Source of the DNA: an uncultured Alphaproteobacteria bacterium
GTDB taxonomy: Bacteria; Pseudomonadota; Alphaproteobacteria; JAPULJ01
Assembly (NCBI GenBank): GCA_964494065.1
Contig: CAZBRE010000001.1
Location: 14,737-78,736, forward strand
DNA length: 64,000 nucleotides
Direction of reading: 5' to 3'
In this document: piece by piece, positions 7,957 through 25,561 of the stretch
How positions within the stretch are numbered: position 1 is the first letter of the stretch
Layout: each line of letters opens with the position of its first letter
Translations under genes and position numbers: made by a program
Notes under the pieces: generated by a model
Told to the model about the DNA's origin: nothing
Seen by the model: the letters and a program-made list of their open reading frames with translations, nothing else
Database searches by the model: none

Positions 7957-8655
7957 ATGGGGCGGGCTGCTGCCACGGAAATTGACGTTGTTCCGATCGA
8001 GAGGGAGACGGTGCAGCAACGCATCTATCGTCAGCTGCGCGACCTCCTGATGCGCGGGCGGTTTCAGCCCGGTCAGCCGCTGCTCATCCACGATCTGGCC
8101 GAGGCTTTCGGCACCAGCGCCCAGCCGGTGCGCGAGGCGATCCGTCAGCTCGTCGCCGAGAAGGCGCTTGTCGCCTCCCCCAACCGCTCGGCCTGCGTGC
8201 CGGTCATCGATCGCGAACGGATGGACGATCTGCGGCGCGCACGCATCGCGATCGAGGGGCTGGCGGTGGAATTGGCCGCCGAGCGGAGCACCGATCGCGA
8301 CATCGAAGCGCTTGCCGCGCTCGTCGAAGAAGAAGTGCGCGCCGACGACGCATCGCGGCCCGAGGCCAGCGTCGCCCAGAATCAGGCCTTTCACATGCAG
8401 CTCTACCGGCTGTCGGGCTCCGCCGTGCTGCTGCCGATCATCGAGAGCCTATGGCTGCAGGTAGGCCCCTATATCCGGCGTGCCGCGGAGTATTTCGATG
8501 CGCGCGGCGGGCGCGGCGCGGAGTTTCACACCACTGCGATCGATGCGCTGAGGCGGCGCGATTTTCCGGCCGTGCGCGCCGCGATCGAGGCTGATATCAA
8601 CCGGCTCTTCGACATCTGCATCGAGCTGGAACGCGCGCCCGACACGGCAGCATGA
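7957..8655 (+). CDS. GntR family transcriptional regulator (FadR/FCD subfamily)
   Basis: 232 aa; N-terminal winged HTH (IYRQLRDLLMRGRFQPGQPL) plus C-terminal FCD-like helical domain. RBS AAGGGAGG lies 6 nt upstream of the ATG. Confidence 0.85.
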   Translation: MGRAAATEIDVVPIERETVQQRIYRQLRDLLMRGRFQPGQPLLIHDLAEAFGTSAQPVREAIRQLVAEKALVASPNRSACVPVIDRERMDDLRRARIAIEGLAVELAAERSTDRDIEALAALVEEEVRADDASRPEASVAQNQAFHMQLYRLSGSAVLLPIIESLWLQVGPYIRRAAEYFDARGGRGAEFHTTAIDALRRRDFPAVRAAIEADINRLFDICIELERAPDTAA

Positions 8656-9019: not shown

Positions 9020-10069
9020 GTGGCCGTCGCGCGCGTCGAGCTCGTGCCCGGATACAGCGTGTCGCGGCTGACCAAGGGTAACTGGCAACTCGCCGAACGC
9101 CACGGCCCCAAGGTCGAGCGCGCGGAAGCGGTCGACGCCATGCGCCGCTTCGTCGAAGCCGGGATCACCAACTTCGATTGCGCCGATCACTATGTCGGGG
9201 TCGAGGAGCTGATCGGCGCCTTCCGCACGGCGCATCCGGATCTCGCCCGCCAACTGACCGTCCAGACCAAGCTCGTGCCCGACCGTGACACGTTGCGCGG
9301 CATCACGCGCGCCGATATCGAGCTGATCGTCGACCGGGCGCGCCAGCGGCTCGGCCAGGATACGCTCGACATGGTGCAGTTCCATTGGTGGGACTGGGCG
9401 ATCCCCGGCCACATCGAGAGCCTGCTCTGGCTGCGCGACATGAGCCAAGAGGGCAAGCTCAGGCTGATCGGCGTCACCAATTATGACGTCCCTCACCTCA
9501 AGGAAGCGATCGACGCGGGCGTACCCGTCGTCAGCCATCAGGTGCAATACTCTGTGCTCGACCGCCGGGTCGAGAACGGTATGGCCGCGTTCTGCCGCGA
9601 GCATGGCATTCATTTGCAGTGCTACGGCACAGTGGCCGGTGGCTTCCTCGGCGACGCATGGCTCGACGCACACGCGCCGGAAACGCCGGCCGACCGCTCG
9701 CAGGCCAAGTATCGTCTCATCATCGAGGAATTCGGCGGCTGGGAGCTGTTTCAGGAGCTGCTGGACGTTATCGGCTCCGTCGCGAGGCGGCACGAGGTCA
9801 GCATCACCGCCATCGCCATCCGCTGGATCCTCGACCGGCCGGGCGTCGCAACGGCGATCGTCGGTGCCCGCACGGACCGTCATCTGGCCGACCTTCTTGC
9901 GATCGACGCCATTCGCCTCGACGACGCCGACCGCGCCGCCATCGCGTCCGTCGTCAGCCGCGCCGACGGGCCGTCCGGCGACTGCTACAGCGTGGAGCGC
10001 GTGCCGGACGGGATGCATGGCGCGCTCAACTGGATGAACCAAAATCTCAAGGGGGTCGGCGCTCGCTGA
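9020..10069 (+). CDS. aldo/keto reductase, YdhF-like (paralog 2)
   Basis: 349 aa; VELVPGYSVSRLTKGNWQL...FDCADHYVG; paralogous to 6750..7793 and 10483..11544. Confidence 0.9.
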   Translation: MAVARVELVPGYSVSRLTKGNWQLAERHGPKVERAEAVDAMRRFVEAGITNFDCADHYVGVEELIGAFRTAHPDLARQLTVQTKLVPDRDTLRGITRADIELIVDRARQRLGQDTLDMVQFHWWDWAIPGHIESLLWLRDMSQEGKLRLIGVTNYDVPHLKEAIDAGVPVVSHQVQYSVLDRRVENGMAAFCREHGIHLQCYGTVAGGFLGDAWLDAHAPETPADRSQAKYRLIIEEFGGWELFQELLDVIGSVARRHEVSITAIAIRWILDRPGVATAIVGARTDRHLADLLAIDAIRLDDADRAAIASVVSRADGPSGDCYSVERVPDGMHGALNWMNQNLKGVGAR

Positions 10070-10136
10070 GGGCCGCTGAGGGCCGCTGAGGGTCGTTGAG
10101 GGAGATGAGCGAAGAGAGGGAGATGAGCGAAGACAG
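10061..10136. repeat. compound microsatellite at the reductase-2 / small-protein-2 junction: 4 x 10-mer (GGCCGCTGAG-like) then 2 x 18-mer (GGAGATGAGCGAAGA[G/C]AG)
   Basis: Seen in sequence. The 10-mers begin at the reductase stop codon; the 18-mers encode the duplicated N-terminus (R)EMSEEREMSED of the second small protein. Confidence 0.6.
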
Positions 10137-10467
10137 CTTCAGCCTCTACGATCTCAAGATCGAGGTCATTCACCACGACAAGGCAAAGCCATTCGTGTGC
10201 AAGCACACGCTGGGCGACAGCTTCATGGTCCGCGGCAGCCTGATCGAGATGCCGGCCGGACAGACCTTCGGGCTTTACGCCATGCTCGCGGTGCTTCCCT
10301 TCGTCCCCGCCAAGCAGCGCCCGACGCAAGACACGGACTGGATGGCGAGCGACGCCGTGATCGGCTGCACGGACCCCCATTGCGGCGCCGGGTTTCGTAT
10401 CTCACGCCTGGAGTCCAAGACCTACCCGCGCGCGGAGCACACGGTCGTTCCGCGACCCGGCGATTGA
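10105..10467 (+). CDS. small conserved protein with C...GCTDPHC motif (uncharacterised; copy 2)
   Basis: Paralog of 8665..9015 (FSLYDLKIEVI...GQTFGLYAMLAVLP...AKQRPT..DWMASDA..GCTDPHCGAGFRISRL). The first ATG is at 10105 and an alternative ATG at 10123; the ORF track begins at TTG 10096. Confidence 0.6.
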   Translation: MSEEREMSEDSFSLYDLKIEVIHHDKAKPFVCKHTLGDSFMVRGSLIEMPAGQTFGLYAMLAVLPFVPAKQRPTQDTDWMASDAVIGCTDPHCGAGFRISRLESKTYPRAEHTVVPRPGD

Positions 10468-10482: not shown

Positions 10483-11544
10483 GTGAACCCCGTCGAACGG
10501 ATCGAGATCGCGCCCGGCTACTCCATTTCGCGGCTCCTGAAAGGCGGCTGGCACCTGTCGAGCGGGCACTCGACCGACGTCGATCGAAGCCAGGCGATCG
10601 AGGACATGGCCACCTTCGTCGAGGCCGGCATCACGAGCTTCGACTGCGCCGATCACTATCTCGGCGTCGAGCAGCTGATTGGCGACTTCCGCGGCACCCA
10701 TCCCGAGCTCGCCGGCAAGGTGCAGGTCCACACCAAATACGTGCCCGATTTCGAGGCGCTGCCGACGCTCACGCGCGCGGACACGGAGCGTGTGATCGAC
10801 CGGTCGCTGCGCCGTCTCGGCGTCGAGACCCTCGATCTCGTCCAATTCTACTGGTGGGATCTGTCCGTTCCGGGCGCCGTGGACACCGCGTTGGTGCTGG
10901 CCGATCTCGTCCGCGCCGGCAAGATCCGCCATCTCGGCCTGACCAATTTCTCGACCGACCAGATGGCCGACTTCGTCGACGCCGGCGTGCCCGTCCTGGT
11001 CAACCAGCTGCAATACTCGCTGGTCGACAACCGCCCCGAAACGCGGCAGATCGACTACTGCCGCCGGCACGGCATCGCGCTCTTGACCTACGGCCATCTG
11101 CTCGGCGGCTTCATATCGGAGACCTGGCTCGGAGCGGAGGAGCCGCACGAGCCCTACCCCAACCGCTCGCTGCGCAAATACAAGCTCATCATCGACGATT
11201 TCGGCGGCTGGGCGCTGTTCCAGGAGCTGCTGGCCGAGCTGACCCGCATCGGCGACCGCCATGGTGTGGGCCCCGGCGAAGTCGCCTTGCGCTGGACCTT
11301 GGACCGGCCCGGTGTAGCTGGCTGCATCGTCGGGGCGACATCGACGCGGCATCTCGAGCGGAACGTGTCGGTCTTCGACCTGCAGCTCGACGACGACGAC
11401 CGCGCCGCGCTGGCCGCGATCTGCGACCGACGCCGAGGACCGCTGGGGGACTGCTACGAGCTCGAAAGCGACAGCGAAGGTCGCCACGGCCGCATCATGC
11501 GCCGCAACCAGAATAAGCTGGAGGATCGGCCCTGGCCCGGTTGA
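10483..11544 (+). CDS. aldo/keto reductase, YdhF-like (paralog 3)
   Basis: 353 aa; IEIAPGYSISRLLKGGWHL...FDCADHYLG; starts 15 nt after small protein 2. Confidence 0.9.
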   Translation: MNPVERIEIAPGYSISRLLKGGWHLSSGHSTDVDRSQAIEDMATFVEAGITSFDCADHYLGVEQLIGDFRGTHPELAGKVQVHTKYVPDFEALPTLTRADTERVIDRSLRRLGVETLDLVQFYWWDLSVPGAVDTALVLADLVRAGKIRHLGLTNFSTDQMADFVDAGVPVLVNQLQYSLVDNRPETRQIDYCRRHGIALLTYGHLLGGFISETWLGAEEPHEPYPNRSLRKYKLIIDDFGGWALFQELLAELTRIGDRHGVGPGEVALRWTLDRPGVAGCIVGATSTRHLERNVSVFDLQLDDDDRAALAAICDRRRGPLGDCYELESDSEGRHGRIMRRNQNKLEDRPWPG

Positions 11545-11678
11545 GCCAGACGCGTTGACCAGGACCCGGGTCCTGCTGCCGAAGGAGCAAGGAAAAAGCC
11601 GTGAGCACAAGTCTGATGAGAGCCGGACGACCCGCGCGCGCCGAAGCCCCGGCCCGGCCCTCGGGCGCGGCCAGTGCC

Positions 11679-11738
11679 GCGACTTGGGCCGCGACTTGGG
11701 CGGCGACTTGGGCGGCGACTTGGGCCGCGGCTTGGGCC
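11679..11738. repeat. 5 x 12-nt tandem repeat GCGACTTGGGC(C/G)
   Basis: Seen in sequence between the reductase-3 stop and the livG-like start. It keeps frame in all reading frames (GRDLG / ATWA / AAQV repeats). Confidence 0.7.
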
Positions 11739-11785
11739 ACGACCGGTCGCTATGGGAATGCGCGTATCGACGACCGAGGCCGTCC

Positions 11786-12583
11786 TTGACTGACGGAAAC
11801 GGACATCGCGACGAGGCGAACGAAATCCTCGCGACACGAGCGCTGACGCGGGATTTCGGCACGTTCCGCGCGGTCAACGAGGTGTCGCTGTCCATTCGGC
11901 GCGGGTCGATCAGCGGACTGATCGGCCCGAACGGCGCCGGCAAATCGACGTATTTCAATACTCTGACCGGCTCGTTGAAGCCGACCAACGGAGCGGTCTT
12001 CCTCGACGGGCGCGATGTGACCGGGCATTCGCCCGACAGCCTCTACCGGCAGGGTCTCGCGCGCACCTTCCAGATCCCGCGGCCGTTCGCCCGTATGAGC
12101 GTGCTCGAAAACGTCATGGTCGCGCCGACCGAGCAAGTCGGCGAATCGATCTTCGGCGCGCTCCTGCGGCGCCGGCAGTTCACGCGTCAGGAAGCCGAGC
12201 TTCGCGACAAGGCGATGGCGATACTGGACTTCATGACCTTGTCCGACCTGGCCGACAATCCGGCCGGAAAAATCTCCGGCGGCCAGACAAAGCTGCTGGA
12301 GCTGGCGCGCGTCCTGATGGGAGATCCCTCCATCATCCTGCTCGACGAGCCGGCGGCCGGGGTCAATCCTGCGCTGACCGAGATCCTCATCGAGCGCATC
12401 GAGGCGCTCAACCGCCAGGGCAAGACGTTCTTCATCATCGAGCACGACATGGATTTCGTCATGCGCCACTGCGATCCGGTAATCGCCCTGGCGGAAGGCC
12501 GCGTGGTGTTCGAGGGAACGGCGGAGGCGGCGCGAAACGATCCCGTGCTGCTCGACGCCTATCTGGGGGCGCAGATCGTATGA
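11786..12583 (+). CDS. ABC transporter ATP-binding protein (LivG-like; branched-chain amino acid/amide type)
   Basis: Walker [10 protein letters not shown], LivG-like N-terminus ILATRALTRDFGTFRAVNEVS. The start is uncertain: I place it at TTG 11786 (in frame); the ORF track extends to ATG 11555 through the repeat. Confidence 0.75.
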   Translation: MTDGNGHRDEANEILATRALTRDFGTFRAVNEVSLSIRRGSISGLIGPNGAGKSTYFNTLTGSLKPTNGAVFLDGRDVTGHSPDSLYRQGLARTFQIPRPFARMSVLENVMVAPTEQVGESIFGALLRRRQFTRQEAELRDKAMAILDFMTLSDLADNPAGKISGGQTKLLELARVLMGDPSIILLDEPAAGVNPALTEILIERIEALNRQGKTFFIIEHDMDFVMRHCDPVIALAEGRVVFEGTAEAARNDPVLLDAYLGAQIV

Positions 12584-13314
12584 GCGCGCCCGACATCGTC
12601 CTCAGCATCGACCACCTGGTCGCGGGCTACGTTCGGGATCTGCCGATCCTGCGCAATGTAAGCCTGCGTTTGAGCGAGGCCAGCGTCGTCGTCATCATCG
12701 GGCCCAACGGCGCCGGCAAGTCGACGCTCATCAAGGCGGTCGCCGGCCTGGTGCCCGTCTCGGACGGCGCGATCAGCCTGCGCGGGCGCGATATCGGCGG
12801 CATCCGTCCCGACCAGCTGGCGCGGCTCGGCATCTCCTACGTGCCGCAGACCGACAACATCTTCCGCACGCTCACGGTTCGGCAGAACCTTCTCCTCGTC
12901 CTGCGCCGATCGGCCTCCGGTGACAAGCGTTTGCATGAGCTCTACACGATGTTCCCGCCCCTCGCCGAGAAGCAGCGCGACAGCGCCGGATCGCTGTCCG
13001 GCGGCCAGCGTCAGATGCTGGCGATCGCGATGGCGCTGGCGACCGAGCCGTCGGTCATCCTGATGGACGAGCCGTCGGCGGGGCTCTCGCCCAAGGCGGC
13101 GAGCGAGGTGCTGACGCTGGCGCGCGGCCTGACCGAGCGGGGCGTCTCGATCCTGCTCGTCGAGCAGAACGTCAAGCAGGCGCTCGCCATCGCCGACCAT
13201 TGCTACATCCTGGCGGAAGGCAGGAACCAGCTGGACGGGCCCTCCGAACAGCTTCTGTCCGATCCGGTAGTCGGGGAGATCTACCTTGGCGGCAAGCGCA
13301 TGGACCCGACATGA
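12580..13314 (+). CDS. ABC transporter ATP-binding protein (LivF-like)
   Basis: 244 aa; Walker [10 protein letters not shown], signature LSGGQRQ; 4-nt overlap with the upstream ATPase gene. Confidence 0.85.
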   Translation: MSAPDIVLSIDHLVAGYVRDLPILRNVSLRLSEASVVVIIGPNGAGKSTLIKAVAGLVPVSDGAISLRGRDIGGIRPDQLARLGISYVPQTDNIFRTLTVRQNLLLVLRRSASGDKRLHELYTMFPPLAEKQRDSAGSLSGGQRQMLAIAMALATEPSVILMDEPSAGLSPKAASEVLTLARGLTERGVSILLVEQNVKQALAIADHCYILAEGRNQLDGPSEQLLSDPVVGEIYLGGKRMDPT

Positions 13315-14222
13315 TCCAGGGGCTGCTCGACGGGCTCCTCGTAGGCTCGATCGTGTCGTTGGGCGCGATCGGCCTCACGATGGTGATGCACATGCTGCGC
13401 TTCGCCAACTTCTCCCATTCCGAGCTGCTATCGATCGGCGCCTATGGCGCGCTGGTCTTCGACCGGATCTTCGCCGCCTTGGTGCCGGTGGCGGCCTCGA
13501 GCGTCGGACCGCTCAGCCTGACCTGGGCGCTGTTCCTTGCAATGATCGTGGCGATGGCACTGACCGGGCTGTCTGCCATCGTCATCGACAAGCTGGTGTT
13601 CAAGCGCATTCGCGAAACGGCGGGGCCTTTGTCGATGGTGTTCGCCTCGTTCGGCGTCGCGCTCATCATCCGCAACGTGCTGGCGCTGATCTTCGGCCTG
13701 AAGCCTCAGCTCTACAGCGGCGACATCGCCTTCGCCGTTACGATCAGCACCGATCCGTCCCTCCTCGTCAAGCCCGATCAGGTGTTCGTGTTTTGCGCGG
13801 CGGTGATCATCATGCTGGCTCTGCACTTCGTGCTTTCGCGCACCACGTTCGGATATGCGTTGCGCGCGGTGGCCGAGAACCCTGCCCTCGCCCAGGTCGC
13901 CGGCGTGCGGCTTTCGACCGTCATCGCCATGACCTGGATCATCGGCGGCGCGCTCGCCGGGGCGGCAGGCGTGTTTCAGGCGCTCGACAACCAGGTTTCG
14001 CCGATGATCGGCAGCGACTTCGTGCTCGCCCTGTTTGCCGCGGCGATCGTCGGCGGCATCGGCAGCGTTTACGGTGCGGTGCTGGGCGGCTTCGTCGTCG
14101 GCATTGCGTCCAGCCTGGCGCTGGTGGTCCTGCCGCCGGGCTACAGCCCGGCCATGCCGTTCCTGATCATCCTCGCCATCCTCTTCATCCGGCCGAACGG
14201 CATTTTCGGGGTGGAGCGATGA
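13311..14222 (+). CDS. branched-chain amino acid ABC transporter permease (LivH-like)
   Basis: ATG at 13311 overlaps the upstream TGA (ATGA); polytopic membrane protein. The longer track ORF from 13200 is an N-terminal over-extension. Confidence 0.8.
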   Translation: MIQGLLDGLLVGSIVSLGAIGLTMVMHMLRFANFSHSELLSIGAYGALVFDRIFAALVPVAASSVGPLSLTWALFLAMIVAMALTGLSAIVIDKLVFKRIRETAGPLSMVFASFGVALIIRNVLALIFGLKPQLYSGDIAFAVTISTDPSLLVKPDQVFVFCAAVIIMLALHFVLSRTTFGYALRAVAENPALAQVAGVRLSTVIAMTWIIGGALAGAAGVFQALDNQVSPMIGSDFVLALFAAAIVGGIGSVYGAVLGGFVVGIASSLALVVLPPGYSPAMPFLIILAILFIRPNGIFGVER

Positions 14223-15187
14223 TCGGCGTTCTGTCCTATCTCGTGTTCTTTCTGTCGGTCGCCGCCATCCTGGCCGTCGCGGTGCTTGGCCTCGATCTGC
14301 ACTGGGGCAATACCGGTCTGTTCAACGGCGGCGTCGCCGCGTTCTTCGGGATGGGCGCCTATGTGACGATCCTGCTCGGCGGATCGCCGCAGCCGGGCCA
14401 GTTCGGCGGCTTCGGCCTCATCTATCCGACGGCGCTGCTCGGCGGCATTCTGGCCTCCGGCGTGCTTGCCTGGATCGTCGGGGTGGCAACGCTGAGGCTG
14501 CGGCACGACTATCTCGCGATCGCGACGTTCGGCGTTGCGGTCGCCTTCGAGACGTTGGCGCGCAACGCCGAATGGCTCACCGGCGGCGCCAAGGGCCTGC
14601 GCGGCTTTGAGCGGCCGCTCGAAGCGACGATCGGCAATCCCTTCCTGTTCAACGTCTGCTTTCTCGTGTTCGTCGTTGCCGTGCTGGCGATCGTCTATGT
14701 GGGACTTAGACGCCTCATCCGCTCGCCCTACGGCAGGCTGCTGCGCGCCATCCGCGAGGATGAGACCGCGGCCCAGGCGCTGGGAAAGAGCCCAGCCAGA
14801 ATCCGCTTGGCCAGCTTCATCACCGGGGCGATGATCATCGGAACATCGGGTGGGCTCTACGTCACCTTCTACGCCTATGTGAGCCCGCAGGACGTTTCGC
14901 CCATCCTGACGTTCCAGATCTGGGCGATGCTCATCGTCGGCGGCGCCGGCAACAACAAGGGCGCGGTGCTTGGGGCCTTCGTCGTATGGGCCGCATGGAC
15001 GGCGAGCGGCTGGGCGTTGGCGCGGTTCGCGCCGGTCGAGATGCAGCTCTACACGGGCACCATTCAGTACATCCTGATTGGGCTCGTCATCGTCGCCATG
15101 CTGCTGCTGCGGCCGCAGGGGCTGCTGCCGGAGAAATTGCTGATTTCGCAGACGGGAAGCGGGGGAACCCGCCAACCTGCATCTTGA
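14219..15187 (+). CDS. branched-chain amino acid ABC transporter permease (LivM-like)
   Basis: ATG at 14219 overlaps the upstream stop; MIGVLSYLVFFLSVAAILAV... The 633 aa track ORF (13286..15187) is an alternate-frame artefact upstream of this start. Confidence 0.8.
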   Translation: MIGVLSYLVFFLSVAAILAVAVLGLDLHWGNTGLFNGGVAAFFGMGAYVTILLGGSPQPGQFGGFGLIYPTALLGGILASGVLAWIVGVATLRLRHDYLAIATFGVAVAFETLARNAEWLTGGAKGLRGFERPLEATIGNPFLFNVCFLVFVVAVLAIVYVGLRRLIRSPYGRLLRAIREDETAAQALGKSPARIRLASFITGAMIIGTSGGLYVTFYAYVSPQDVSPILTFQIWAMLIVGGAGNNKGAVLGAFVVWAAWTASGWALARFAPVEMQLYTGTIQYILIGLVIVAMLLLRPQGLLPEKLLISQTGSGGTRQPAS

Positions 15188-15223: not shown

Positions 15224-16495
15224 ATGTCAAAATACGCACTACGGACCGCAGCCATATTGGCGGCGGGCGCACTTCTGGGAATGGCGGCCACACCGGCAAC
15301 CGTTCATGCCGCAGACTGCACAGTAAAGATCGGCGCGGTTCTACCGACTTCGGTGGACTGGGGCCGTCCGATCGCCAGGACCGCGCAGTTCGCGACCGAG
15401 ATTGCGAACAAGGCCGGCGGCGTCAATGGCTGCACGGTGAAGATGGTCCTTCGCGACACGCAGACCGACGCGAAGGTCGGCGTCGATGCCGCCAAGGCGA
15501 TGGTCGACCTCGACAAGGTGCCGGTCCTGCTCGGGGCAGTTTCGAGCGGCGTCTCGATGCCGATCCTGACCTCGGTGGCCGTACCGGCGAACGTCATGCA
15601 GATGTCGTGCTGCTCATCGTCGACGAGCTTCTCGCGGCTGGCGGCGTCGGGCAAGACCAAGGGCCTGTGGTTCCGCACCTTCGCCACGACCCGGATCCAG
15701 ACCTCGATGGCGGCCCTGATGGCCAAGGAGAAGGGCTACAAGAAGATCGCCATCTTCTACAAGAATGACGACTGGGGTCAGGATGTGGTCAAGCTCGTCG
15801 AGGCCGATTTCAAGTCCGTCGGCGTGACGATCACCTCCAAGGTCGCGATCACCAACGGCCAGCCGTCCTATCGGGCCGAAGTGACCTCGGCGCTCAAGGG
15901 CAAGCCCGATGCGGTCTATCTGGCGCTCTATCCAAAAGAGGGTATCGCGGTCGTGCGTGAGTGGATCTCGCTCGGCGGCACGCGGAAGATGATCGTCGCC
16001 AACTCGCTGAAGTCGAACGACTTCCGCGACAGCGTCGGGCTCAAATATCTCGGCCAGCTGATCGGCACCGATACGTCGGCGCCGCGCACGAAGTCGGCCG
16101 GCGATTTCGTCAAGCTCTACAAGGCGCGTTTCAACGCCGAGCCGAACGGCCCCGGTATCGCCAACAGCTTCGATGCCGCCATGGTCTCGCTGCTCGCCAT
16201 GCAGGCGGCCGGCAAGGGTGCCAACGGTACGGCCATTGCGGCGAAGGTGCCGATGGTCACCGACCCGAACGGCACGCCGATCGAAGGCAGCGTCGCGGGC
16301 TTCAAGAAGGCGATCGCCCTGCTGAAGGCGGGCAAGCCGGTGAGCTATCAGGGCGCGACCGGTGCGGTGAAGTTCGACCGCAACGGCGACGTCTCGGCCC
16401 CGGCGTTGATCTGGACGTTCACGAAGACGGGCATCAAGGAGCTCCGCTACATCTCGCTCAAGGAGGTCGACGCGTTCGTCGCGACGCTCAAGTAG
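15224..16495 (+). CDS. ABC transporter substrate-binding protein (LivK/Peripla_BP_6 family)
   Basis: 423 aa with signal peptide (AAILAAGALLGMAATPATVHA); type I periplasmic binding fold. Confidence 0.85.
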   Translation: MSKYALRTAAILAAGALLGMAATPATVHAADCTVKIGAVLPTSVDWGRPIARTAQFATEIANKAGGVNGCTVKMVLRDTQTDAKVGVDAAKAMVDLDKVPVLLGAVSSGVSMPILTSVAVPANVMQMSCCSSSTSFSRLAASGKTKGLWFRTFATTRIQTSMAALMAKEKGYKKIAIFYKNDDWGQDVVKLVEADFKSVGVTITSKVAITNGQPSYRAEVTSALKGKPDAVYLALYPKEGIAVVREWISLGGTRKMIVANSLKSNDFRDSVGLKYLGQLIGTDTSAPRTKSAGDFVKLYKARFNAEPNGPGIANSFDAAMVSLLAMQAAGKGANGTAIAAKVPMVTDPNGTPIEGSVAGFKKAIALLKAGKPVSYQGATGAVKFDRNGDVSAPALIWTFTKTGIKELRYISLKEVDAFVATLK

Positions 16496-16640: not shown

Positions 16641-17393
16641 ATGCCCACGGTGGTGAGTGTGATCGGCGCGGGCCGGATCGCCGCGCCGGTGATCGCGCAT
16701 ATCCGCGAGGCCGGCGATTTCCATCTCGGCGCCGTGCTGACCCGCGGCGCCCGAACTGGCGCCCTGGCTGACATCCGTGGACCGGGCGTTTCCGATATCG
16801 ACGCGTTTCTCGCCTCCCCGGCGGATATCGTCATCGACGCGGCCGGTCCCGGCGCGCTGCGTCAGTACGGCCCGCTGATCCTGGAGCGCGCCGAGCTGTG
16901 GACGGTCGGTGCGAGCGCTCTGGCCGACGACGGTTTCCGCGAACGCATGCGCGACGTGGCTCTGCGTCATGGCCACACGCTGCACCTCTTCTCCGACTGG
17001 ATTGCGGCAGCGGATCAATGCATTCCGGGCGTTCCGGGCCTTCCGGGCGTTCCGGCGCGCTTGCGGATCCGCGCGGCGCGGCCCGGGATCGCTGAGCACC
17101 CAGGCACGGCGTTTGACGGCCCACTGCGCGAGGCCGCCCGCCTCTATCCCAACGAGGTCAACTCCGCCGTTGCCGCCGCGCTGTGCGGACCCGGTCTCGA
17201 CAACACGGTCATCGAGCTGATCGACTCCGGGCCGGACGGCGAGCACACCATCCGCGGCGAGATCGAGATCGGCGCCCTGCGCCTCACGACGCAGGTCGAT
17301 CTGGGAGGGGCCGGGCCCGAGGCGTTGCACCCGGTCGCAGGCGCCCTGATCGCGGCGCTCGAACGACGATCCCAACCGTTCCGCTACGGTTAG
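16641..17393 (+). CDS. aspartate dehydrogenase-like NAD(P)-binding protein (DUF108 family)
   Basis: 250 aa; N-terminal Rossmann motif VSVIGAGRIAAPV and a C-terminal aspartate-dehydrogenase-like region. Contains the in-frame 9-nt repeat encoding PGVPGLPGVPA. Confidence 0.55.
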   Translation: MPTVVSVIGAGRIAAPVIAHIREAGDFHLGAVLTRGARTGALADIRGPGVSDIDAFLASPADIVIDAAGPGALRQYGPLILERAELWTVGASALADDGFRERMRDVALRHGHTLHLFSDWIAAADQCIPGVPGLPGVPARLRIRAARPGIAEHPGTAFDGPLREAARLYPNEVNSAVAAALCGPGLDNTVIELIDSGPDGEHTIRGEIEIGALRLTTQVDLGGAGPEALHPVAGALIAALERRSQPFRYG

Positions 17394-17424: not shown

Positions 17425-18888
17425 TCAAGCGACGAAGGCCTCAGCCTCGATTTCCACTTTGTAGTCGCCGATCAGCGAGCCGATCGCATTCAATGTGTTG
17501 ACCGGCTTGATCGACCCGAAGACGCGCCCATGCGCTTCCGACACGGCCATGACGTCGGCGGCGTCGGCGAGATAGACCTGTGTGCGAACGACGTCCTCCA
17601 TCGAAGCCCCCAAGGCGCCGAGGGCTCCGGCGATCTTGTCGAGTATGTATGTGGTCTGCGCACCGGCGTCGCCGCGGGCAACCACCCGATCGGCACCCGC
17701 CGTTGCAGTCGTGCCCGATACCAGGATCCGGTCGCCGATCCGTCGCGCCCGGCAATATCCCGCAATGTCCTCCCATTCGCTGCCGGACAGGACCCTGCGC
17801 TGGCCCGGCTTGCCCGGTACGTCCTCGGCCACATAGGCTCGGTCGAACGACGTCAGGTGATCGCTGAGGTCGCCCGCGGCGGTCAGGTAAGGCGGCCTGC
17901 GGTACTCGTCGCCGCAGTCGCCCGGCACCGGTTTCGTGGCGGCAAAGGCCTCGTCGAGCAGTGCGTGGTCTTCGCCGTCGAGCGTGAAGGCGAACAGGCG
18001 CAGATTGTCGGCGCGGTGCTCGCGCTCACCCGGCCTGGCGCCGATGATCACGCCGGCCACGGCGGCTTGCTCGAGCACCCACCGCGAGGCGACGTTGGGG
18101 ATTGAGACGCCGTGCTTGTCGCCGATCTTGGCGGCGGCGCGCAGAATGCCCTGGTAGGGCTCCCAGCCGCCGATCACGTCGATGAAGCGCTTGTATTTCA
18201 TGCTGCTCCAGTCGGACAGGGTCGCCGGCTCTGGCTGGTCCAACCATTTGTTCGACAGGAAACCGCCGCACAGCGTGCCATAGGCGAGGAGGCGCATGCC
18301 CGTTGCGGCGCAAACCTCCGCGAGCGGTCCTGCGGCCCGGCGGTCGAGCAGCGAGAACGAAACCTGGTTGGTCAGCAGCGGAATGCCGTCGGCATGCGCC
18401 AAGTGCAGATGGGCCGCATCGAAATTGGTGACGCCGATCTCGCCGATAATGCCCTGCGCGCGCAGATCCGCCATCACATGGAGCGCGTCGAGCCATGCCG
18501 GATGCTCGAACGTCCACCAGTGAAGCTGCAGCAGGTCGATATGCTCGACGCCGAGGCGCTGGCGGCGTTCCTCGATCCCGGCACGCACCACCGCTTCGGT
18601 CATCGGTCCGGGCGCAGGGCACCATTTCGTGAAGGCGCGCGGCCGTTCACCGGCGTCCGGGTAGCGCTTGAGCAGGCGGCCCGCAATGATCTCGGCGCTG
18701 CCGTAGTGGTCGGCCATATCGAAGGTCGAAAAGCCTTCGTCTACATAGGCCTGCAGGTGATCGGCAGCGTCGTCCGGGTCGAGCATCTCGCCGTCCTTTT
18801 CCATGTCGGCGACCTGCCACAGGCCCGTCACCACACGGCTGATCTCCATACCGCCGGTCAGTTTCAGCTGTTCGGGACCCTTCGACAT
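17425..18888 (-). CDS. aldo/keto reductase (YdhF-like, paralog 4) fused to a C-terminal RidA/YjgF-like domain
   Basis: Start at internal Met 18888 (MSKGPEQLKLTGGMEISRVVTGLWQV...FDMADHYG). The C-terminal ~120 aa (RILVSGTTATAG...TQVYLADAADV...VNTLNAIGSLIGDYKVEIEAEAFV) has RidA hallmarks. Confidence 0.8.
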   Translation of the reverse strand: MSKGPEQLKLTGGMEISRVVTGLWQVADMEKDGEMLDPDDAADHLQAYVDEGFSTFDMADHYGSAEIIAGRLLKRYPDAGERPRAFTKWCPAPGPMTEAVVRAGIEERRQRLGVEHIDLLQLHWWTFEHPAWLDALHVMADLRAQGIIGEIGVTNFDAAHLHLAHADGIPLLTNQVSFSLLDRRAAGPLAEVCAATGMRLLAYGTLCGGFLSNKWLDQPEPATLSDWSSMKYKRFIDVIGGWEPYQGILRAAAKIGDKHGVSIPNVASRWVLEQAAVAGVIIGARPGEREHRADNLRLFAFTLDGEDHALLDEAFAATKPVPGDCGDEYRRPPYLTAAGDLSDHLTSFDRAYVAEDVPGKPGQRRVLSGSEWEDIAGYCRARRIGDRILVSGTTATAGADRVVARGDAGAQTTYILDKIAGALGALGASMEDVVRTQVYLADAADVMAVSEAHGRVFGSIKPVNTLNAIGSLIGDYKVEIEAEAFVA

Positions 18889-19211
18889 ACTCTTTCGTCC
18901 TCTTCGGGGCTTGCGACGGTATTGACGTCGTTGTTGAAGTCGAGACGACATATCGGCAGCGACCACAGCGGTTTTCTTCGCGATCGCAGCACAACGGCAT
19001 TCGTTGCCACACAACGACATCGCTTGAGAGCGTCATCGGGCAAATTTCGCGATGCGCGCGGTGTGGGACGAGGCGGCGCCGGTCGTTTAGGTGAGTGTAG
19101 ACCCACGGGTGTCGTGCGTGGAACCGTTGAGCTGACGTCGGCAGGGATACGGCCGACCGTGGTCCGATCGCAGGTCCCCCGATCGGTCGATCAATCAACC
19201 ACGTCGCAGAC

Positions 19212-20297
19212 CTAGCCCGCGGCAACGCGGGAGGTTTGCGGCTCCAGATGACGGAGCTGCGGTGCGACCTCTTCCATGAACCGCGTCATCGACCGTGCCC
19301 GTTTCTCGCGTGTGGCCCAGTCCTTTCCCGTGACGATCAGAAATGTGCCGAATCCGTCAACGGCATCATAGAAATCCTTGATCTGACCTGCGATCCGGTC
19401 CGGCTCGCCCAGCAGATAGAAACCGGCCTCGGCAAGTGCCTCGACGGCCCGCTCGTCATTCGGCACGTCGATGTTCAAGACCTCTTTGGCGACTTTGAGG
19501 AATCCGCGCTCGGCCTGGACGCCGACCTCGAACGTGACCGATGGCCGCAGATCCTCCAAGGCTTCCTCGTAGGAATCCGCGACGTAGACAATCCGCGACG
19601 CGGCGATGTTCTGTCGTGCCCCCGCGACCCCCGCATCGGCGGCGTATTTCTGATAGAGATCGGCCTTGGCGCGTACCCGATCGGCGCTCTCCAGAAAAGC
19701 CGTCAAAACCGTGTAGCCACGCTCCGCCGAAAGCTTGATGACAGCCTCGGTATCCGTCGCCGTCGCCATCGGCATATGCGGCGTCGACAGCGGTTTGGGC
19801 AGGGCGACCACACCATTGCCCTGCCAGTGATCGCCGTTCCAGTCGAAAATCTCATCGCTGGTCCAGCATTTTAGAATGAAATCAAGCGATTCCTGGAGCC
19901 GTGCGTGGCGATCCTCGAACGTCAGACCACGCTCGTCGCAGAAAAGCGGCGACGGAAATCCCGTCCCAAACCCGAAGATGAATCGGCCTTCGCCGAGCAG
20001 ATGCTCGGTTACCGCCGCCTGTATCGCGACATCGAGCGGATGCTCGATATGAAGCAGCTTGACCGCCGCCCCCATACGGATCTGCTTCGTAAGACCCGCC
20101 GCCTTGCACATCATCAGTTCCGGCGCGGGAATGGTATCCACGCGATTGATATAGGGCGGCTCGCCATGATGCGCGCTGATATAGGCATCCCGGAAACCCA
20201 GCCTGTCGGCCAACACGATTTCGAGGATGTCTTCTTCGTAGGTTTTTGCAGCACTGGTATGTGGGCGAAATCCGTTTGACCATATTCCGAAATGCAT
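19212..20297 (-). CDS. LLM-class (luciferase-like) flavin-dependent oxidoreductase
   Basis: Start at Met 20297 (MHFGIWSNGFRP...); TIM-barrel LLM family pattern. Confidence 0.75.
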   Translation of the reverse strand: MHFGIWSNGFRPHTSAAKTYEEDILEIVLADRLGFRDAYISAHHGEPPYINRVDTIPAPELMMCKAAGLTKQIRMGAAVKLLHIEHPLDVAIQAAVTEHLLGEGRFIFGFGTGFPSPLFCDERGLTFEDRHARLQESLDFILKCWTSDEIFDWNGDHWQGNGVVALPKPLSTPHMPMATATDTEAVIKLSAERGYTVLTAFLESADRVRAKADLYQKYAADAGVAGARQNIAASRIVYVADSYEEALEDLRPSVTFEVGVQAERGFLKVAKEVLNIDVPNDERAVEALAEAGFYLLGEPDRIAGQIKDFYDAVDGFGTFLIVTGKDWATREKRARSMTRFMEEVAPQLRHLEPQTSRVAAG

Positions 20298-20565: not shown

Positions 20566-23500
20566 CTAGCTAACCGCCTCTTCGCCTGCATCCGGCGCAA
20601 CGGCTTTTTGCGTTTTGGGCCGCGGCGCGAGGTAGGAATAGACCGCCGGTATTACGAATAGCGTGAAGAAGGTTCCGACCAGCACGCCGCCGACGATGAC
20701 AAGGCCGATGTCCTGTCGCGATTCCGCCCCAGCCCCACTCGCGATCGCCAGCGGGATGGCACCAAACACCATCGCGCCGGTGGTCATCAGGATCGGCCGC
20801 AAGCGCAGGACCGCAGCCTCGACGACGGCATCCTTGACCCCTGCGCCCGCCTCCACCCGCTGGTTGGCGAAGTCGACGATCAGGATTCCGTGCTTTGTGA
20901 TCAGTCCGATCAGCGTCACCAGGCCGACCTGGCTGTAGATGTTGAGCGTGCTGCCGTCGAGCCACAGGGCGGTGAGGCCTCCGGTGATCGAGAGCGGCAC
21001 CGTGAGCATGATGATGAACGGGCTGCGGAAGCTCTCGAACTGGGCGGCCAGGACCAAATAGATAAAGGCGAGCGCGAGCACGAAGGTGAGATAGATGCCG
21101 CCGCTCGCCACCTTGAACTCACGCGACTGACCGGCGTAGTCGATCTGCGCGGTCGGAGGCAGCACCTCCTTGACGGCTTGCTCGAGATACGCCAGCGCCT
21201 GGCTGAGCGATGTGCCGGTGGCGAGGTTGGCGGTGATCTTGGCCGCGCGCAGCTGATTGAAGTGGTTGAGCTCTTGCGGCGCCACCGTCTCCTGCACGCG
21301 CACGAGGTTGCCGAGCTGTATCAGCTGATTACGGCTGCTGCGGACGTAGATCCGCGGAATATCGGTCGGGTTCGTCCGGAAGCGCTGGTCGATCTGCACC
21401 ACGACGTCGTATTGGCGGCCCTCACGGTTGAACCGCGTGACCTGTCGACCACCCAGAAAGGTCTCCAGAGTTCGGCCCAGGACTTCGGCCGATACGCCGA
21501 GATCGGCCGCCTTGTCGCGGTCGACGGTGAGCTTGAGCTGCGGCTTGTTCAGGCGCAGGTCGCTGTCGACATTCAGCAGTCCGGGATACGCCTTGGCCTT
21601 GGCCAGGACCTTGTTCGCCATCGCCTGAAGCTCGACGAAGGGGCGCGTCGTCTGGATCACGATCTGCACCGGCTTGTCGCGGACGCTTTGGCCGAGCGGC
21701 GGCGGACGGATCGGAAAGGCCAGCACGCCGGTGATACCCACCATCGATGGGAACATCTGCCGGATGATCTCCGGCTGGCTGCGCTTGCGCGTCGACCAGG
21801 GTTTCAGGCCGGCGAAGCCGATGCCCTGCGAGACGACCGGAAAGCCCGACACGACGAAGTAGCGCTCGATCTCGGGGACCTTCGAGAAGATCTTCTCGAC
21901 CTCGGAGGCGTAGCGGTCGGTGTACCGGATCGTCGATCCCACGGGCGCCCGTATGAACCCGATGATGGTGCCCGTGTCCTCATACGGCGCGAGCTCTGAG
22001 TTGAGCTGCGTAAACACCCCGAAACCGCAGCCCGCGACCGCCAGTCCGACGAGAAGAACCAACGGGCGGATGCGCATCGTCCTGGTGAGCACGGTGCGGT
22101 AACCCTTGCTCAGGCCTTCGATTCCCTGCTCCACCAGGCGATACGCCCAGCCATGCCGGGCCTGGTGCCGCAACAGCAGCGAGCACATCATCGGCGATGC
22201 CGTGAGCGCCACGAAACCCGACACCACGACGGTACCGGCCAGCGTGATCGCGAACTCGGTGAACAGGCGTCCCGTCGTCCCGCCCATGAAGCCGATCGGC
22301 ACGTAGACCGCGGCCAGGGTCAGGGTCATCGCGACGATCGCGAAGCCGATCTCCCGCGAGCCCTGGAACGCAGCCTGCAGCGGCGACTTTCCCTCCTCGA
22401 CGTGACGGAAGATGTTCTCCAGCATCACGATGGCGTCGTCGACCACCAGCCCGATCGCGAGCACCATGGCAAGCAGGGTCAGCGTGTTGATCGAGAAGCC
22501 GAACAGGCTCATCAGCGCGAACCCGCCGATCAGCGAGACCGGGATCGTCACCAGGGGCACGAGGATCGCCCGGAACGAGCGCAGGAAGACGAAGATGATC
22601 AGAACCACGAGGACGACCGCTTCGCCGATCGTGGTGTAGACGTTCTTGATCGACGCATCGATGAACAGCGAGCGGTCGTAGGCGACGCGCGCGGTCATGC
22701 CTTTCGGCAGCCCGGCGACGATCTGCGGCAGTCGGTCGCGCACGGCTTTCGAGACGTCGAGCGGATTTGCGGTGGCCTGCTTGATCACGCCCAGTGCGAT
22801 TGCGCTCTGGCCGTTGAAGCGGACGATCCGGCGCTCGTCCAGGGGGGCCAGCTGCGCGCGGCCGATGTCGTTGAGGCGGACCAGGTAACCCTGCTCGGTC
22901 TTGCGGATCACCATGGTGTTGAACTGCCGCGGGGCCTTGAGGTCGGTCTCCAGCAGGACCGTGAACTCGCGGTAGCGGCTCTCCACCAGGCCGGCGGGTA
23001 TCTCGATGTTCTCGCGCCGCAGCGCCGCTTCGACGTCCTGGGGCGTAACCCGGTAGGCCGCCATGCGGTCGGGATCGAGCCAGATCCGCATCGAATAGCG
23101 GCGCTCACCGAAGATCCGCACCTGCGCCATGCCCGGCAGGGTCTGCAGCTGGTCCTTCACGTAGCGATCGACATAGTCGGTGATCTCCATCGCCGAATGC
23201 CGGTTGCTGGAGAAGGCAAGGTAGATGGTGGGCTGCGCGTCGGCCTCGACCTTCTCGATCACCGGCTCGTCGACTTCCGGCGGCAGGTTCCGGCGCACCC
23301 GGCTGACCCGGTCGCGGATGTCGGCGGCTGCGGCTGAGGGGTTGCGGTCGAGCGTGAAGGTGACGCTGATCTGGCTGGTTTCCTGCCGGCTGATCGAGGT
23401 GATGAAATCGATCCCTTCGATTCCGGCGAGGGCGTCCTCGAGGATCTGCGTCACCTGCGTTTCCATGATCTCCGCGCTGGCGCCCGGATAGCGCGTCTCG

Positions 23501-23649
23501 ACGCTGACGACCGGCGGGTCGATCTTGGGATATTCGCGAACGGTCAATTCGTTGTAGGAGACCAGCCCCAGGAGGACGACGACAAGGCTGAGGACGGTTG
23601 CGAAGACCGGGCGGCGGATACAGATCTCGGAAATGTTCATTGCCGTCAA
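20566..23649 (-). CDS. RND efflux transporter permease (AcrB/HAE1 family)
   Basis: 1027 aa, 12-TM RND topology, conserved ICIRRPVFATVLSL N-terminus. Confidence 0.95.
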   Translation of the reverse strand: MTAMNISEICIRRPVFATVLSLVVVLLGLVSYNELTVREYPKIDPPVVSVETRYPGASAEIMETQVTQILEDALAGIEGIDFITSISRQETSQISVTFTLDRNPSAAAADIRDRVSRVRRNLPPEVDEPVIEKVEADAQPTIYLAFSSNRHSAMEITDYVDRYVKDQLQTLPGMAQVRIFGERRYSMRIWLDPDRMAAYRVTPQDVEAALRRENIEIPAGLVESRYREFTVLLETDLKAPRQFNTMVIRKTEQGYLVRLNDIGRAQLAPLDERRIVRFNGQSAIALGVIKQATANPLDVSKAVRDRLPQIVAGLPKGMTARVAYDRSLFIDASIKNVYTTIGEAVVLVVLIIFVFLRSFRAILVPLVTIPVSLIGGFALMSLFGFSINTLTLLAMVLAIGLVVDDAIVMLENIFRHVEEGKSPLQAAFQGSREIGFAIVAMTLTLAAVYVPIGFMGGTTGRLFTEFAITLAGTVVVSGFVALTASPMMCSLLLRHQARHGWAYRLVEQGIEGLSKGYRTVLTRTMRIRPLVLLVGLAVAGCGFGVFTQLNSELAPYEDTGTIIGFIRAPVGSTIRYTDRYASEVEKIFSKVPEIERYFVVSGFPVVSQGIGFAGLKPWSTRKRSQPEIIRQMFPSMVGITGVLAFPIRPPPLGQSVRDKPVQIVIQTTRPFVELQAMANKVLAKAKAYPGLLNVDSDLRLNKPQLKLTVDRDKAADLGVSAEVLGRTLETFLGGRQVTRFNREGRQYDVVVQIDQRFRTNPTDIPRIYVRSSRNQLIQLGNLVRVQETVAPQELNHFNQLRAAKITANLATGTSLSQALAYLEQAVKEVLPPTAQIDYAGQSREFKVASGGIYLTFVLALAFIYLVLAAQFESFRSPFIIMLTVPLSITGGLTALWLDGSTLNIYSQVGLVTLIGLITKHGILIVDFANQRVEAGAGVKDAVVEAAVLRLRPILMTTGAMVFGAIPLAIASGAGAESRQDIGLVIVGGVLVGTFFTLFVIPAVYSYLAPRPKTQKAVAPDAGEEAVS

Positions 23650-24725
23650 CCGCCCTGCGGGGCGATGACCGTTACCGGCGTGCCGTCGGCGAGCTTGAGC
23701 TGGCCCGCGGTGACGACCACATCGCCGGCCACGAGCCCCGCGACGATTTCAACGCTGCCGTATCGGCGGAGGCCGATCTCGACCTTCGTCAGCGCGGCTT
23801 TTCCGTTCACCACCTTGAAGACGTAGAAGTCCCGGCCACGCGGGATGATCGACTGCTCGAGGACCACGACCGCCTTCTTGCGAACCTGGATCACGAGCGC
23901 GACCCTGGCAAAGAGCCCCGGCTTCAGCCGGTTGTCCGCATTGGGGATCAGCGCACGCACCGTAAGGCTGCGGCCGGCGGGATCGATCCGGGTCGCGATC
24001 GCCGAGACCCTGCCCTTGAAGCTTTCCCCAGGCAGGGCATCCACGCTGACGGTCACCGTCTGATCCACGCGGATGAAGCGGAGGTATCGCTCCGGCAGCT
24101 CGAAATCCAGCTCCAGGGGATCGGCGTCGTCCAGCGTGATCAAATCCTGGCCGACATTGACGTAGGCGCCGACGTCGACACGGCTCAACCCGACGATCCC
24201 GGCAAAGGGAGCGTGCAGCTTGGTCTTCGACAGGCGCGCCTTGGCGAGGTTGACGGCCGCGCGGTCAGTCTGGACCTTGCTGAGCGCCTCGTCGCGAGCC
24301 TGCCCAGTCCCGGCGCCGCGCTTGTAGAGTTTGACCGCGCGCTCGTAGTTGCTGAGGCTGAGCCGCAGGCTGGCCTCCGCCTTCTCCAGCTCCGCCTGAT
24401 AGATCGTGTCGTCGAGGCTGAACAGCAGCGCGCCCTTTTTTACCCGCTCCGTCTCGCGCGCTTCGATGCTGGCGATGACGCCTGCGATCTCGGGCCGCAC
24501 GATGATCGACTTGTTGGCGCGCAGCGAGCCGATCGCATTGACCTCGTTCATGACCGAACGAACGGTCACCTTCTGTGCCTCGACGGGGACCCCCCGACGG
24601 GCCGGTGCGCCCTGGCCGACTGCATGCAGCGCGCCGCCGAGGACGACTGTCCCCATGATGGCAACGCTCGTCAGGGTGCGCAGATGCCGGCCCAGCGAGG
24701 GCCGCCGATCGAGGGATGGCAACAT
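23646..24725 (-). CDS. RND efflux periplasmic adaptor (membrane fusion protein)
   Basis: 359 aa, AcrA/HlyD-like; 4-nt overlap with the RND gene. Confidence 0.9.
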   Translation of the reverse strand: MLPSLDRRPSLGRHLRTLTSVAIMGTVVLGGALHAVGQGAPARRGVPVEAQKVTVRSVMNEVNAIGSLRANKSIIVRPEIAGVIASIEARETERVKKGALLFSLDDTIYQAELEKAEASLRLSLSNYERAVKLYKRGAGTGQARDEALSKVQTDRAAVNLAKARLSKTKLHAPFAGIVGLSRVDVGAYVNVGQDLITLDDADPLELDFELPERYLRFIRVDQTVTVSVDALPGESFKGRVSAIATRIDPAGRSLTVRALIPNADNRLKPGLFARVALVIQVRKKAVVVLEQSIIPRGRDFYVFKVVNGKAALTKVEIGLRRYGSVEIVAGLVAGDVVVTAGQLKLADGTPVTVIAPQGG

Positions 24726-24765
24726 CTTGATGACGAACCGGACCCGGTTTGATGCTAGGCTAAAC

Positions 24766-24781
24766 TGAACTGGTCAGTTCA
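24766..24781. promoter_or_regulatory. inverted repeat TGAACTG-gt-CAGTTCA in the divergent TetR / adaptor-RND promoter region (candidate TetR operator)
   Basis: Seen in sequence; 7-2-7 perfect arms between the adaptor start (24725) and the TetR start (24875). Confidence 0.45.
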
Positions 24782-24874
24782 TATATGATGCGCCGAGGCT
24801 TGAGAAGTCACTTCGATGCGAGCCCGTCGGTGGCTTTGTCGGGCGTTTGACGAGAGGCGAAAAGGCTAGCTTGG

Positions 24875-25561
24875 ATGAATGCACCGACGGTGAACACGCC
24901 CGCCCCGACGCATGGCAGAACGCCGGATTTTGCGACATCGCGCTGGTTGCGAAAGCACGGCGCGATCCTGGACGCCGCGACCGAACTCTTCTTGTCGGAG
25001 GGGTATCTGCGCACCAGCATGGAAGCGATTGCCGATCGGGCCGGGGTGTCCAAAGCCACCCTCTACACGCATTTCGGAAACAAGGCGGGACTCTTTGAAG
25101 CCATCGTCGACGGGCTCTGCCATCAGCTGTTCGAGCCGGTCAGGCGGTCTACTGAGCAGCCTGCGAGCCCGCGGGAGGTTCTCCTGGCATTGGCGCGCCA
25201 GTATATGCAGCTCATGCTCGAGCCGTCGTCGATCGGCCTGTTTCGGGCGCTGGTCTCCGAAGAGGAGGTCCGCAGCGAGCTCGGCGCCCGGTCTTATGGC
25301 GCGGGCGCCGGCGCCGCCTTGGCCGAGCTGGCCGCCTATCTGGAAGACTGGACAAATGACGGCCTGCTATCGGTGGATGACTGCGGGCTGGCGGCCGAGC
25401 AGTTTTTCGGCATGCTGGGCGGCATCGCACAGGTGCGCGCGCTGCTGGGCGTTTGCGAGCAGATATCAGAGACGGCGCTGTCGCGTATGACCGAGGGCGC
25501 CGTAACCACCTTCCTGCGGGCCTTCGCGGCGGCACCAGGTGTCAGCCGGTCTCCCGACTAA
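24875..25561 (+). CDS. TetR/AcrR family transcriptional regulator
   Basis: 228 aa; N-terminal TetR HTH (ILDAATELFLSEGYLRTSMEAIADRAGVSKATLYTHF); divergent from the efflux operon. Confidence 0.9.
   Translation: MNAPTVNTPAPTHGRTPDFATSRWLRKHGAILDAATELFLSEGYLRTSMEAIADRAGVSKATLYTHFGNKAGLFEAIVDGLCHQLFEPVRRSTEQPASPREVLLALARQYMQLMLEPSSIGLFRALVSEEEVRSELGARSYGAGAGAALAELAAYLEDWTNDGLLSVDDCGLAAEQFFGMLGGIAQVRALLGVCEQISETALSRMTEGAVTTFLRAFAAAPGVSRSPD

Follow-up and report, generated by a model that had tools for sequence, protein, structure and literature searches.

A 64,000-nucleotide (nt) stretch of the genome of an uncultured Alphaproteobacteria bacterium (GenBank assembly GCA_964494065.1, contig CAZBRE010000001.1, positions 14,737 to 78,736; this whole stretch is hereafter called the window) carries on its minus strand a gene whose product joins an aldo/keto reductase (AKR) to a C-terminal domain of the Rid/YjgF fold. 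Our analysis favors the view, to which we assign a probability of about 60%, that this product is a genuine two-domain enzyme, in which an intact AKR is combined with a Rid domain lacking the RidA arginine (Arg105), and that it supplies the enzymatic activity of an import module of the amino-acid type. The gene and its parts, in coordinates of the window, are as follows:

17425 to 18888, minus strand: AKR-Rid fusion gene, 487 amino acids (aa) plus stop codon (open reading frame [ORF]; both domains by Pfam)
18898 to 18904, minus strand: Shine-Dalgarno-like AAGAGGA, read from the sequence, with 9-nt spacing to the ATG at 18888
17947 to 18834, minus strand: AKR TIM-barrel domain, aa 19-314 (Pfam PF00248, E 1.2e-57)
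17854 to 17925, minus strand: inter-domain motif PGDCGDEYRxPPxLTAxGDLSxHL, aa 322-345 (family conservation)
17434 to 17769, minus strand: Rid/YjgF-fold domain, aa 374-485, with a structural start near aa 354 (PF01042, E 1.5e-18)
17497 to 17499, minus strand: codon AAC for Asn464, at the position of RidA Arg105 (alignments to E. coli RidA, 2dyy, 5yu2, 2csl, and 2b33)

The fusion is encoded within an uninterrupted minus-strand ORF spanning positions 19020 to 17425, of which the ATG at 18888 is used; the starts of homologs coincide with this ATG (99-100% coverage), and independent gene calls on three metagenome contigs yielded an identical 487-aa product with the same start. The G+C content at third codon positions (GC3) in this frame was 0.73-0.93 over the entire gene, including the junction, and the junction itself is kept at the protein level across 129 two-domain homologs. 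Because in-frame GC3 is continuous and the junction is conserved in these 129 homologs, and with three identical contig copies at hand, we exclude a frameshift or assembly artefact as the origin of the fusion. A preliminary description of this DNA, drawn up from its letters alone, had proposed the pairing of an AKR with a Rid-family domain in a single gene, and our domain searches and frame analysis confirm that proposal. A scan for promoters and terminators around the gene found none.

The N-terminal half scored 195.6 bits with PF00248 (cutoff 24) over profile positions 2-289 of 291, and the C-terminal half scored 67.4 bits with PF01042 (cutoff 27.3) over profile positions 7-120 of 121. Consistently, sequence matches in the PDB split into AKRs over aa 15-324 and Rid proteins over aa 365-486. 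An AlphaFold2 (AF2) model of the fusion reached a predicted local distance difference test (pLDDT) score of 88 and a predicted template modeling (pTM) score of 0.90, values from which a fixed arrangement of the two domains is predicted. When the whole model was compared with solved structures using Foldseek, the AKR half alone gave matches, namely, to the AKRs 7utf, 4xk2, 8hwn (DepB), 1lqa (Tas), and AKR11B (template modeling score of ~0.75 on the target, E ~1e-17).

More specifically, the catalytic tetrad of the AKR half (D57, Y62, K88, and H123) aligns with the tetrad motifs of the solved structures 7utf and 8hwn and is retained in 128-129 of the 129 two-domain homologs, and the cofactor motif G283-A-R...H291..D294-N295 is invariant in the fusion family. 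By these hallmarks, the AKR half is predicted to be an intact NAD(P)H-dependent carbonyl reductase. Its substrate is not readable from homology, because no NCBIfam equivalog cutoff was reached (best model YdjG, 65 bits versus a cutoff of 550; PRK10376, 31 versus 280). The window holds exactly four AKR-domain genes, of which the fusion is the fourth (the others, at 6750-7829 on the minus strand and at 9020-10069 and 10483-11544 on the plus strand, are 34-36% identical to it), and one Rid domain of this type. The preliminary description had called the gene the fourth YdhF-like paralog; its count was right, but the YdhF label found no specific support, the best model being YdjG, below its cutoff. 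YdhF (1og6) was not found among the best 60 PDB sequence matches of the fusion.

The spacing of ~40 aa that had been described as a linker between the domains is present as stated; the segment is nevertheless no neutral linker, for it holds the most conserved motif of the fusion. Residues 322-345 form the best-conserved stretch of the entire protein, above either catalytic domain, in members ranging from Alphaproteobacteria to fungi and Telonema. The GDC..E part of this motif is also present in the stand-alone AKR paralogs of the window, and the fungal stand-alone AKR relatives terminate exactly at ...GDCGAEYR. Being common to stand-alone AKRs, GDC..E therefore belongs to the C-terminal tail of this AKR clade. 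Residues 336-345 are the sole segment of the fusion with a pLDDT below 50 in the AF2 model.

The C-terminal half matched 37 Rid proteins of the PDB at E < 1e-3, and its modeled secondary structure is typical of the Rid fold. When the domain is aligned with E. coli RidA and with four RidA-type proteins of solved structure, the sequence KPVNTL, which contains Asn464, faces PARS, which contains Arg105. Residue 464 is Asn in 125 of the 129 homologs and Arg in none of them, fungal and gammaproteobacterial members included. The seven invariant pocket residues given in the TdcF structure paper (Tyr17, Gly31, Asn56, Asn88, Arg105, Pro114, and Glu120; PMC1884159) are kept here at three positions (Y378, G392, and E479) and changed at four (Asn56 to K418, Asn88 to S450, Arg105 to N464, and Pro114 to I473). 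Likewise, the Rid half remained below the RidA model TIGR00004 (44.4 bits versus a cutoff of 106.25) and below RutC (43 versus 169). Judged by its residues, we classify it as an arginine-less, Rv2704-like Rid domain rather than as a canonical RidA 2-imino-acid deaminase.

This classification can be set beside what has been published on the Rid family. Arg-less Rid subfamilies are marked by the absence of Arg105 and the retention of Glu120 (PMC4433059), and the fusion has N464 and E479 at these positions. A Trp at the Arg position marks Rid4 and Rid7, and the position is variable in Rid5 and Rid6 (PMC4433059); Asn464, not being Trp, makes Rid4/Rid7 less likely and leaves room for Rid5/Rid6. The Arg-less Rid4-7 proteins most probably do not hydrolyze imines, and Rid7, the one case tested, showed no such activity (Niehaus et al. 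2015, PMC4433059). The Rid-type 2-aminomuconate deaminase AmnE retains the arginine (PMC6742747), and Rv2704 is without Arg105, "suggesting an alternative role" (PMC5038272). Within the fusion family, ~15 polar residues at pocket-equivalent positions of the Rid half are invariant across 50-129 homologs, eukaryotes included, which favors a functional pocket over a mere scaffold; the pattern of conserved and replaced residues suggests that the pocket is probably functional but re-specified. A separate 803-aa protein (P0177) contains six tandem Rid domains related to that of the fusion, presumably forming two covalently linked trimers.

The fusion is by no means confined to the window. All of the best 120 matches among 5.8 billion protein clusters combine PF00248 with PF01042 (~487 aa, 68-100% identity), and they come mostly from Alphaproteobacteria; NCBI/RefSeq names such proteins "aldo/keto reductase," and JGI names both domains. 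We scanned 185,579 genomes, one per species, with six narrow peptide patterns and found 333 stretches encoding a relative of the fusion; 80 of these loci were retrieved for context counts, and all 80 carry the fusion, with matches over almost its entire length of 487 aa. Searching 1.84 billion representatives exhaustively and without profiles, we recovered full-length two-domain relatives down to 40% identity; among the distant ones are those of a Rhodanobacter metagenome-assembled genome (MAG), of two fungi (Lasiodiplodia and Vanrija), and of the protist Telonema. The Rhodanobacter protein is the sole named member, itself from a MAG, of a second bacterial clade represented by at least 539 metagenome stretches. 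One of the metagenome contigs with a fusion (L093) is clearly eukaryotic, with bromodomain and SBDS genes beside the fusion. Because protein clusters, species genomes, two bacterial clades, and eukaryotes all carry it, the fusion architecture is old, widespread, and stable. The preliminary description had recommended a survey of how frequent the fusion is, and these counts show it to be common.

The eukaryotic fusions (P0128, P0134, P0139, and that at 8571-10142 of L093) have preserved both the tetrad and the GDCGDEYR motif. Natural split versions were considered and rejected: "stand-alone" Rid sequences at ~70% identity lie directly behind truncated AKR genes, and in the assemblies with apparently split fusions, neighboring genes are broken by frameshifts too. 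Larger fusions (P0126 and others) contained no further recognizable domains. A literature search found no paper on an AKR-Rid fusion. The fusion is thus a member of a large, already catalogued, experimentally uncharacterized family.

To assess the genomic neighborhood of the fusion, we searched the 80 genome loci by tblastn with window genes and with genes taken from three annotated loci. The window genes concerned, with the number of loci in which each was found, are as follows:

7957 to 8655, plus strand: GntR/FCD-family regulator (Pfam; 43 of 80 loci)
10123 to 10467, plus strand: TIGR04076-family small protein (NCBIfam E 5e-15, above cutoff; 69 of 80 loci)
10483 to 11544, plus strand: stand-alone AKR paralog with Tyr at the catalytic-His position (Pfam; a stand-alone AKR accompanies the fusion in 67-69 of 80 loci)
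11555 to 13314, plus strand: two ABC ATPase genes, the true start of the first ORF probably being internal (Pfam ABC_tran; 75 of 80 loci)
13311 to 15187, plus strand: two BPD_transp_2 (LivH/LivM-type) permease genes (Pfam and gene calls in locus L001; 74 of 80 loci)
15224 to 16495, plus strand: Peripla_BP_6 substrate-binding protein, HAAT family (Pfam; 68 of 80 loci)
16641 to 17393, plus strand: aspartate-dehydrogenase (AspDH)-like NAD-binding protein (Pfam/NCBIfam, below equivalog cutoffs; 9 of 80 loci)
19212 to 20297, minus strand: luciferase-like monooxygenase (LLM) gene (fewer than 4 of 80 loci)

All other neighbors of the fusion were found in at most 12 of the 80 loci each. The same cluster is visible on annotated maps from Roseobacter, Allorhizobium, Albidovulum, and Mesorhizobium and on a RefSeq Rhizobium plasmid. 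The fusion lies on the same strand behind the permease genes in 34 loci (with a gap of 6 nt in locus L085) and is divergent in 35. Of 80 loci of the second clade, 50-57 have an APC-family amino-acid permease gene on the same strand, ~40 nt upstream of the fusion, and it is the sole conserved neighbor. The conserved partner of the fusion is, therefore, an amino-acid-type importer, i.e., a liv-like HAAT ABC transporter in Alphaproteobacteria and an APC permease in the second clade. Since two unrelated importer types are tied to the fusion, we take the substrate of the enzyme to be either an imported compound resembling an amino acid or something formed downstream of it, and this coupling is the strongest functional clue available.

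As the preliminary description had it, the fusion is convergent with the AspDH-like gene and the liv-like operon (the stop codons of the fusion and the AspDH-like gene are 31 nt apart) and lies downstream of the LLM oxidoreductase gene on the same strand, at a distance of 323 nt. The weight it had placed on the LLM and AspDH neighbors was misdirected, the liv-like ABC operon being the real conserved partner. We rejected the LLM oxidoreductase as a functional partner, because it occurs in fewer than 4 of the 80 loci, beside the fusion solely in the nearest relatives of the window, and the AspDH-like gene as a core partner, given its presence in 9 loci. Just upstream of the LLM gene are an RND efflux transporter (20566-23649, minus strand), a membrane-fusion protein (23646-24725, minus strand), and a divergent TetR/AefR-like regulator (24875-25561, plus strand); these genes (20566-25561) appear unrelated to the AKR cluster.

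The stand-alone partner AKRs beside the TIGR04076 gene (in the window and in L084, L086, and L088) differ at the catalytic-His position, which is Tyr in the window copy and a Roseobacter, Phe in the Albidovulum type, and His in Rhizobium and Mesorhizobium. The window paralog at 6750-7829 (minus strand) has Ala at this position. In stand-alone paralogs with a replaced His, canonical acid-base chemistry may be altered or lost.

According to the reading we favor, the AKR site would use NAD(P)H to reduce an amino-acid-like compound taken up by the importer, or its carbonyl derivative. By analogy with other Rid proteins, the Rid domain would trimerize the protein and may add a second conserved pocket, in which R380, K418, H453, R455, and N464 replace Q19, N56, Y91, A93, and R105. 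This pocket would bind or convert a partner intermediate other than a 2-imino acid, such as an imine/enamine or tautomer without an alpha-carboxylate. A bolder form of the proposal, which we put forward only tentatively, is that the re-tooled Rid pocket is a true catalytic partner, hydrolyzing or tautomerizing an imine or enamine without an alpha-carboxylate that derives from an imported amino compound, and that the AKR reduces the product.

Several observations weigh against the importer-coupled enzyme. The window's own copy is oriented convergently to the transporter operon and not co-transcribed with it; 5 of the 80 loci are arranged in this way, and these five are the closest relatives of the window. 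Coupling to a transporter is not obligatory, because the eukaryotic members work without an operon partner. The permease of the second clade matches generic APC models only, with equally generic hints as to specificity; the binding protein is merely a distant relative of characterized amino-acid binders (LivJ- and Atu2422-type), and its PDB relatives gave generic ligand hints only. Moreover, the literature search returned no biochemical or genetic data on any member of the fusion family, and the part assigned to the Rid pocket follows from residue conservation only.

The preliminary description had explained the fusion as a channeled two-step reaction, in which a RidA-type deaminase turns a reactive enamine or imine into a carbonyl that the fused AKR reduces to an alcohol. 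The reductase part of this scheme agrees with the AKR hallmarks, and the pairing of AKR and Rid domains, the coupling to amino-acid importers, and the retained equivalents of Glu120 and Tyr17 all fit it. An AspDH-like enzyme, a possible source of imines, is present in the window and in 9 of the 80 clusters, and two papers cite a Rid protein of the Agrobacterium nicotine cluster, annotated Rid6, as a characterized imine deaminase whose imine substrate has no alpha-carboxylate (PMC7688666, PMC8552603). The RidA chemistry, however, is not borne out: the Arg105 equivalent is Asn and never Arg among the 129 homologs, four of the seven canonical pocket residues are altered, the TIGR00004 score (44 bits) is far from the cutoff of 106, Rid7 is without imine hydrolase activity and Rid4-7 have been judged non-hydrolases (PMC4433059), and no imine-generating enzyme, such as a pyridoxal-phosphate-dependent dehydratase or an amine oxidase, is a conserved neighbor in the 80 loci of either clade. 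On balance, we consider this scheme doubtful. The missing arginine would equally suit a non-catalytic Rid domain that only trimerizes the AKR or senses a ligand allosterically on its behalf. Trimer formation is obligatory in Rid proteins, TdcF has been proposed as a metabolite sensor (PMC1884159), and multi-Rid fusions exist, as exemplified by the six tandem domains of P0177. The invariant polar residues of the pocket nevertheless exceed what a scaffold needs, although a sensor role would still accommodate them, and we regard a purely non-catalytic Rid domain as unlikely.

A third explanation makes the fusion an enzyme of the kynurenine pathway, e.g., the orphan deaminating 2-aminomuconate reductase (2-aminomuconate + NAD(P)H to 2-oxoadipate + NH3), a reduction that a fungal study (PMC7842363) mentions as no more than a possibility and for which it proposes no gene. 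It draws on the contig of the Rhodanobacter MAG (L091, 1-8078), where an operon comprising genes for an aldehyde dehydrogenase, 3-hydroxyanthranilate dioxygenase (3-HAO), an ACMSD-like amidohydrolase, kynureninase, a KMO-like monooxygenase, and an APC permease ends in the fusion, as well as on the Trp 2,3-dioxygenase and kynureninase genes that abut the fusion in 7 Mesorhizobium-type loci and in L089, and on a related AKR (P0235) with a sub-threshold IDO-like N terminus. These occurrences are outweighed by the absence of kynurenine genes from all 80 loci of the Rhodanobacter-type clade (that of P0121), from 72 of the 80 alphaproteobacterial loci, and from the window. The Mesorhizobium adjacency is, moreover, convergent, and that operon has a stand-alone Rid of its own. 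The usual reduction target of AKRs bearing a DYKH tetrad is C=O, not C=C, and in AmnE, the known 2-aminomuconate deaminase of the Rid type, the arginine is still present (PMC6742747). The kynurenine link is lineage-specific and not general, and we hold this explanation to be very improbable.

Some further observations concern these kynurenine-linked loci. No separate 2-aminomuconate deaminase is visible in the L091 operon. In a Mesorhizobium MAG (L096, 11461-21464), the convergent operon overlaps the end of the fusion by 4 nt and encodes a 132-aa stand-alone Rid, Trp 2,3-dioxygenase, kynureninase, an AMP-ligase, an acyl-CoA dehydrogenase, an enoyl-CoA hydratase, and an FAD/OYE fusion; it looks like a route from tryptophan via anthranilate to 2-aminobenzoyl-CoA. 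P0235 and P0206 are AKRs of the partner-paralog type that share a homologous N-terminal domain of ~350 aa. The assignment of this domain in P0235 as IDO-like was rejected (PF01231 at 22.9 bits versus a cutoff of 26, with no PDB match), and that of P0206 had neither a Pfam nor a PDB match.

The field recognizes the function of Arg-less Rid proteins (Rid4-7 and Rv2704) as an unsettled question. In the fusion, a Rid domain of this kind is joined covalently to an enzyme of known chemistry and genomically to dedicated importers, which offers an experimental handle. If the bolder form of our proposal holds, it would provide the first biochemical role for arginine-less, Rv2704-like Rid proteins, and the fusion and its importer would constitute a self-contained "import-and-convert" module kept from bacteria to fungi; a variant suggested by a few loci would be a missing step in tryptophan/kynurenine catabolism, e.g., deaminating 2-aminomuconate reduction. 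Our findings also caution against the label "enamine deaminase RidA" that JGI uses for this domain. Taken alone, the gene adds only another copy to an architecture that is widespread and annotated in databases.

Among known systems, the closest counterpart of the Rid half is M. tuberculosis Rv2704 (3i7t), its best PDB match (E 1.5e-19 over 122 aa). The two share the motifs GSExE...GY(S/C)RA, GTT, VVRT, H453, and VEIEA, and both are without Arg105. Rv2704 is, however, a stand-alone protein of 149 aa with Thr at the Arg position and an uncharacterized function, whereas the fusion Rid is attached to an AKR, has Asn at that position, and carries the additional invariant residues K418 and R455. RidA, TdcF, and YjgF have the same fold, and the fusion keeps the equivalents of their Tyr17, Gly31, and Glu120; they are free 13-kDa proteins, in contrast to the AKR-attached Rid domain described here. 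A Rid fold placed behind an unrelated enzyme is also known from yeast Dph6 (diphthine-ammonia ligase), which has C-terminal YjgF/UK114-like domains; its catalytic partner and pathway are different. The AKR half, for its part, shares the TIM barrel, the DYKH tetrad, and the GAR...H..N motif with bacterial AKRs of families 11-13 and their relatives (7utf, DepB 8hwn, AKR11B4 3n2t, YhdN 1pz1, and Tas 1lqa), among which 7utf and DepB are AKRs for deoxynivalenol detoxification. The sequence matches to these enzymes reach E values of 1e-17 to 1e-21, with an identity of only ~25%, and, unlike them, the fusion has the C-terminal GDC(G/Y)xE tail of its clade and a fused Rid domain and matches no equivalog model.

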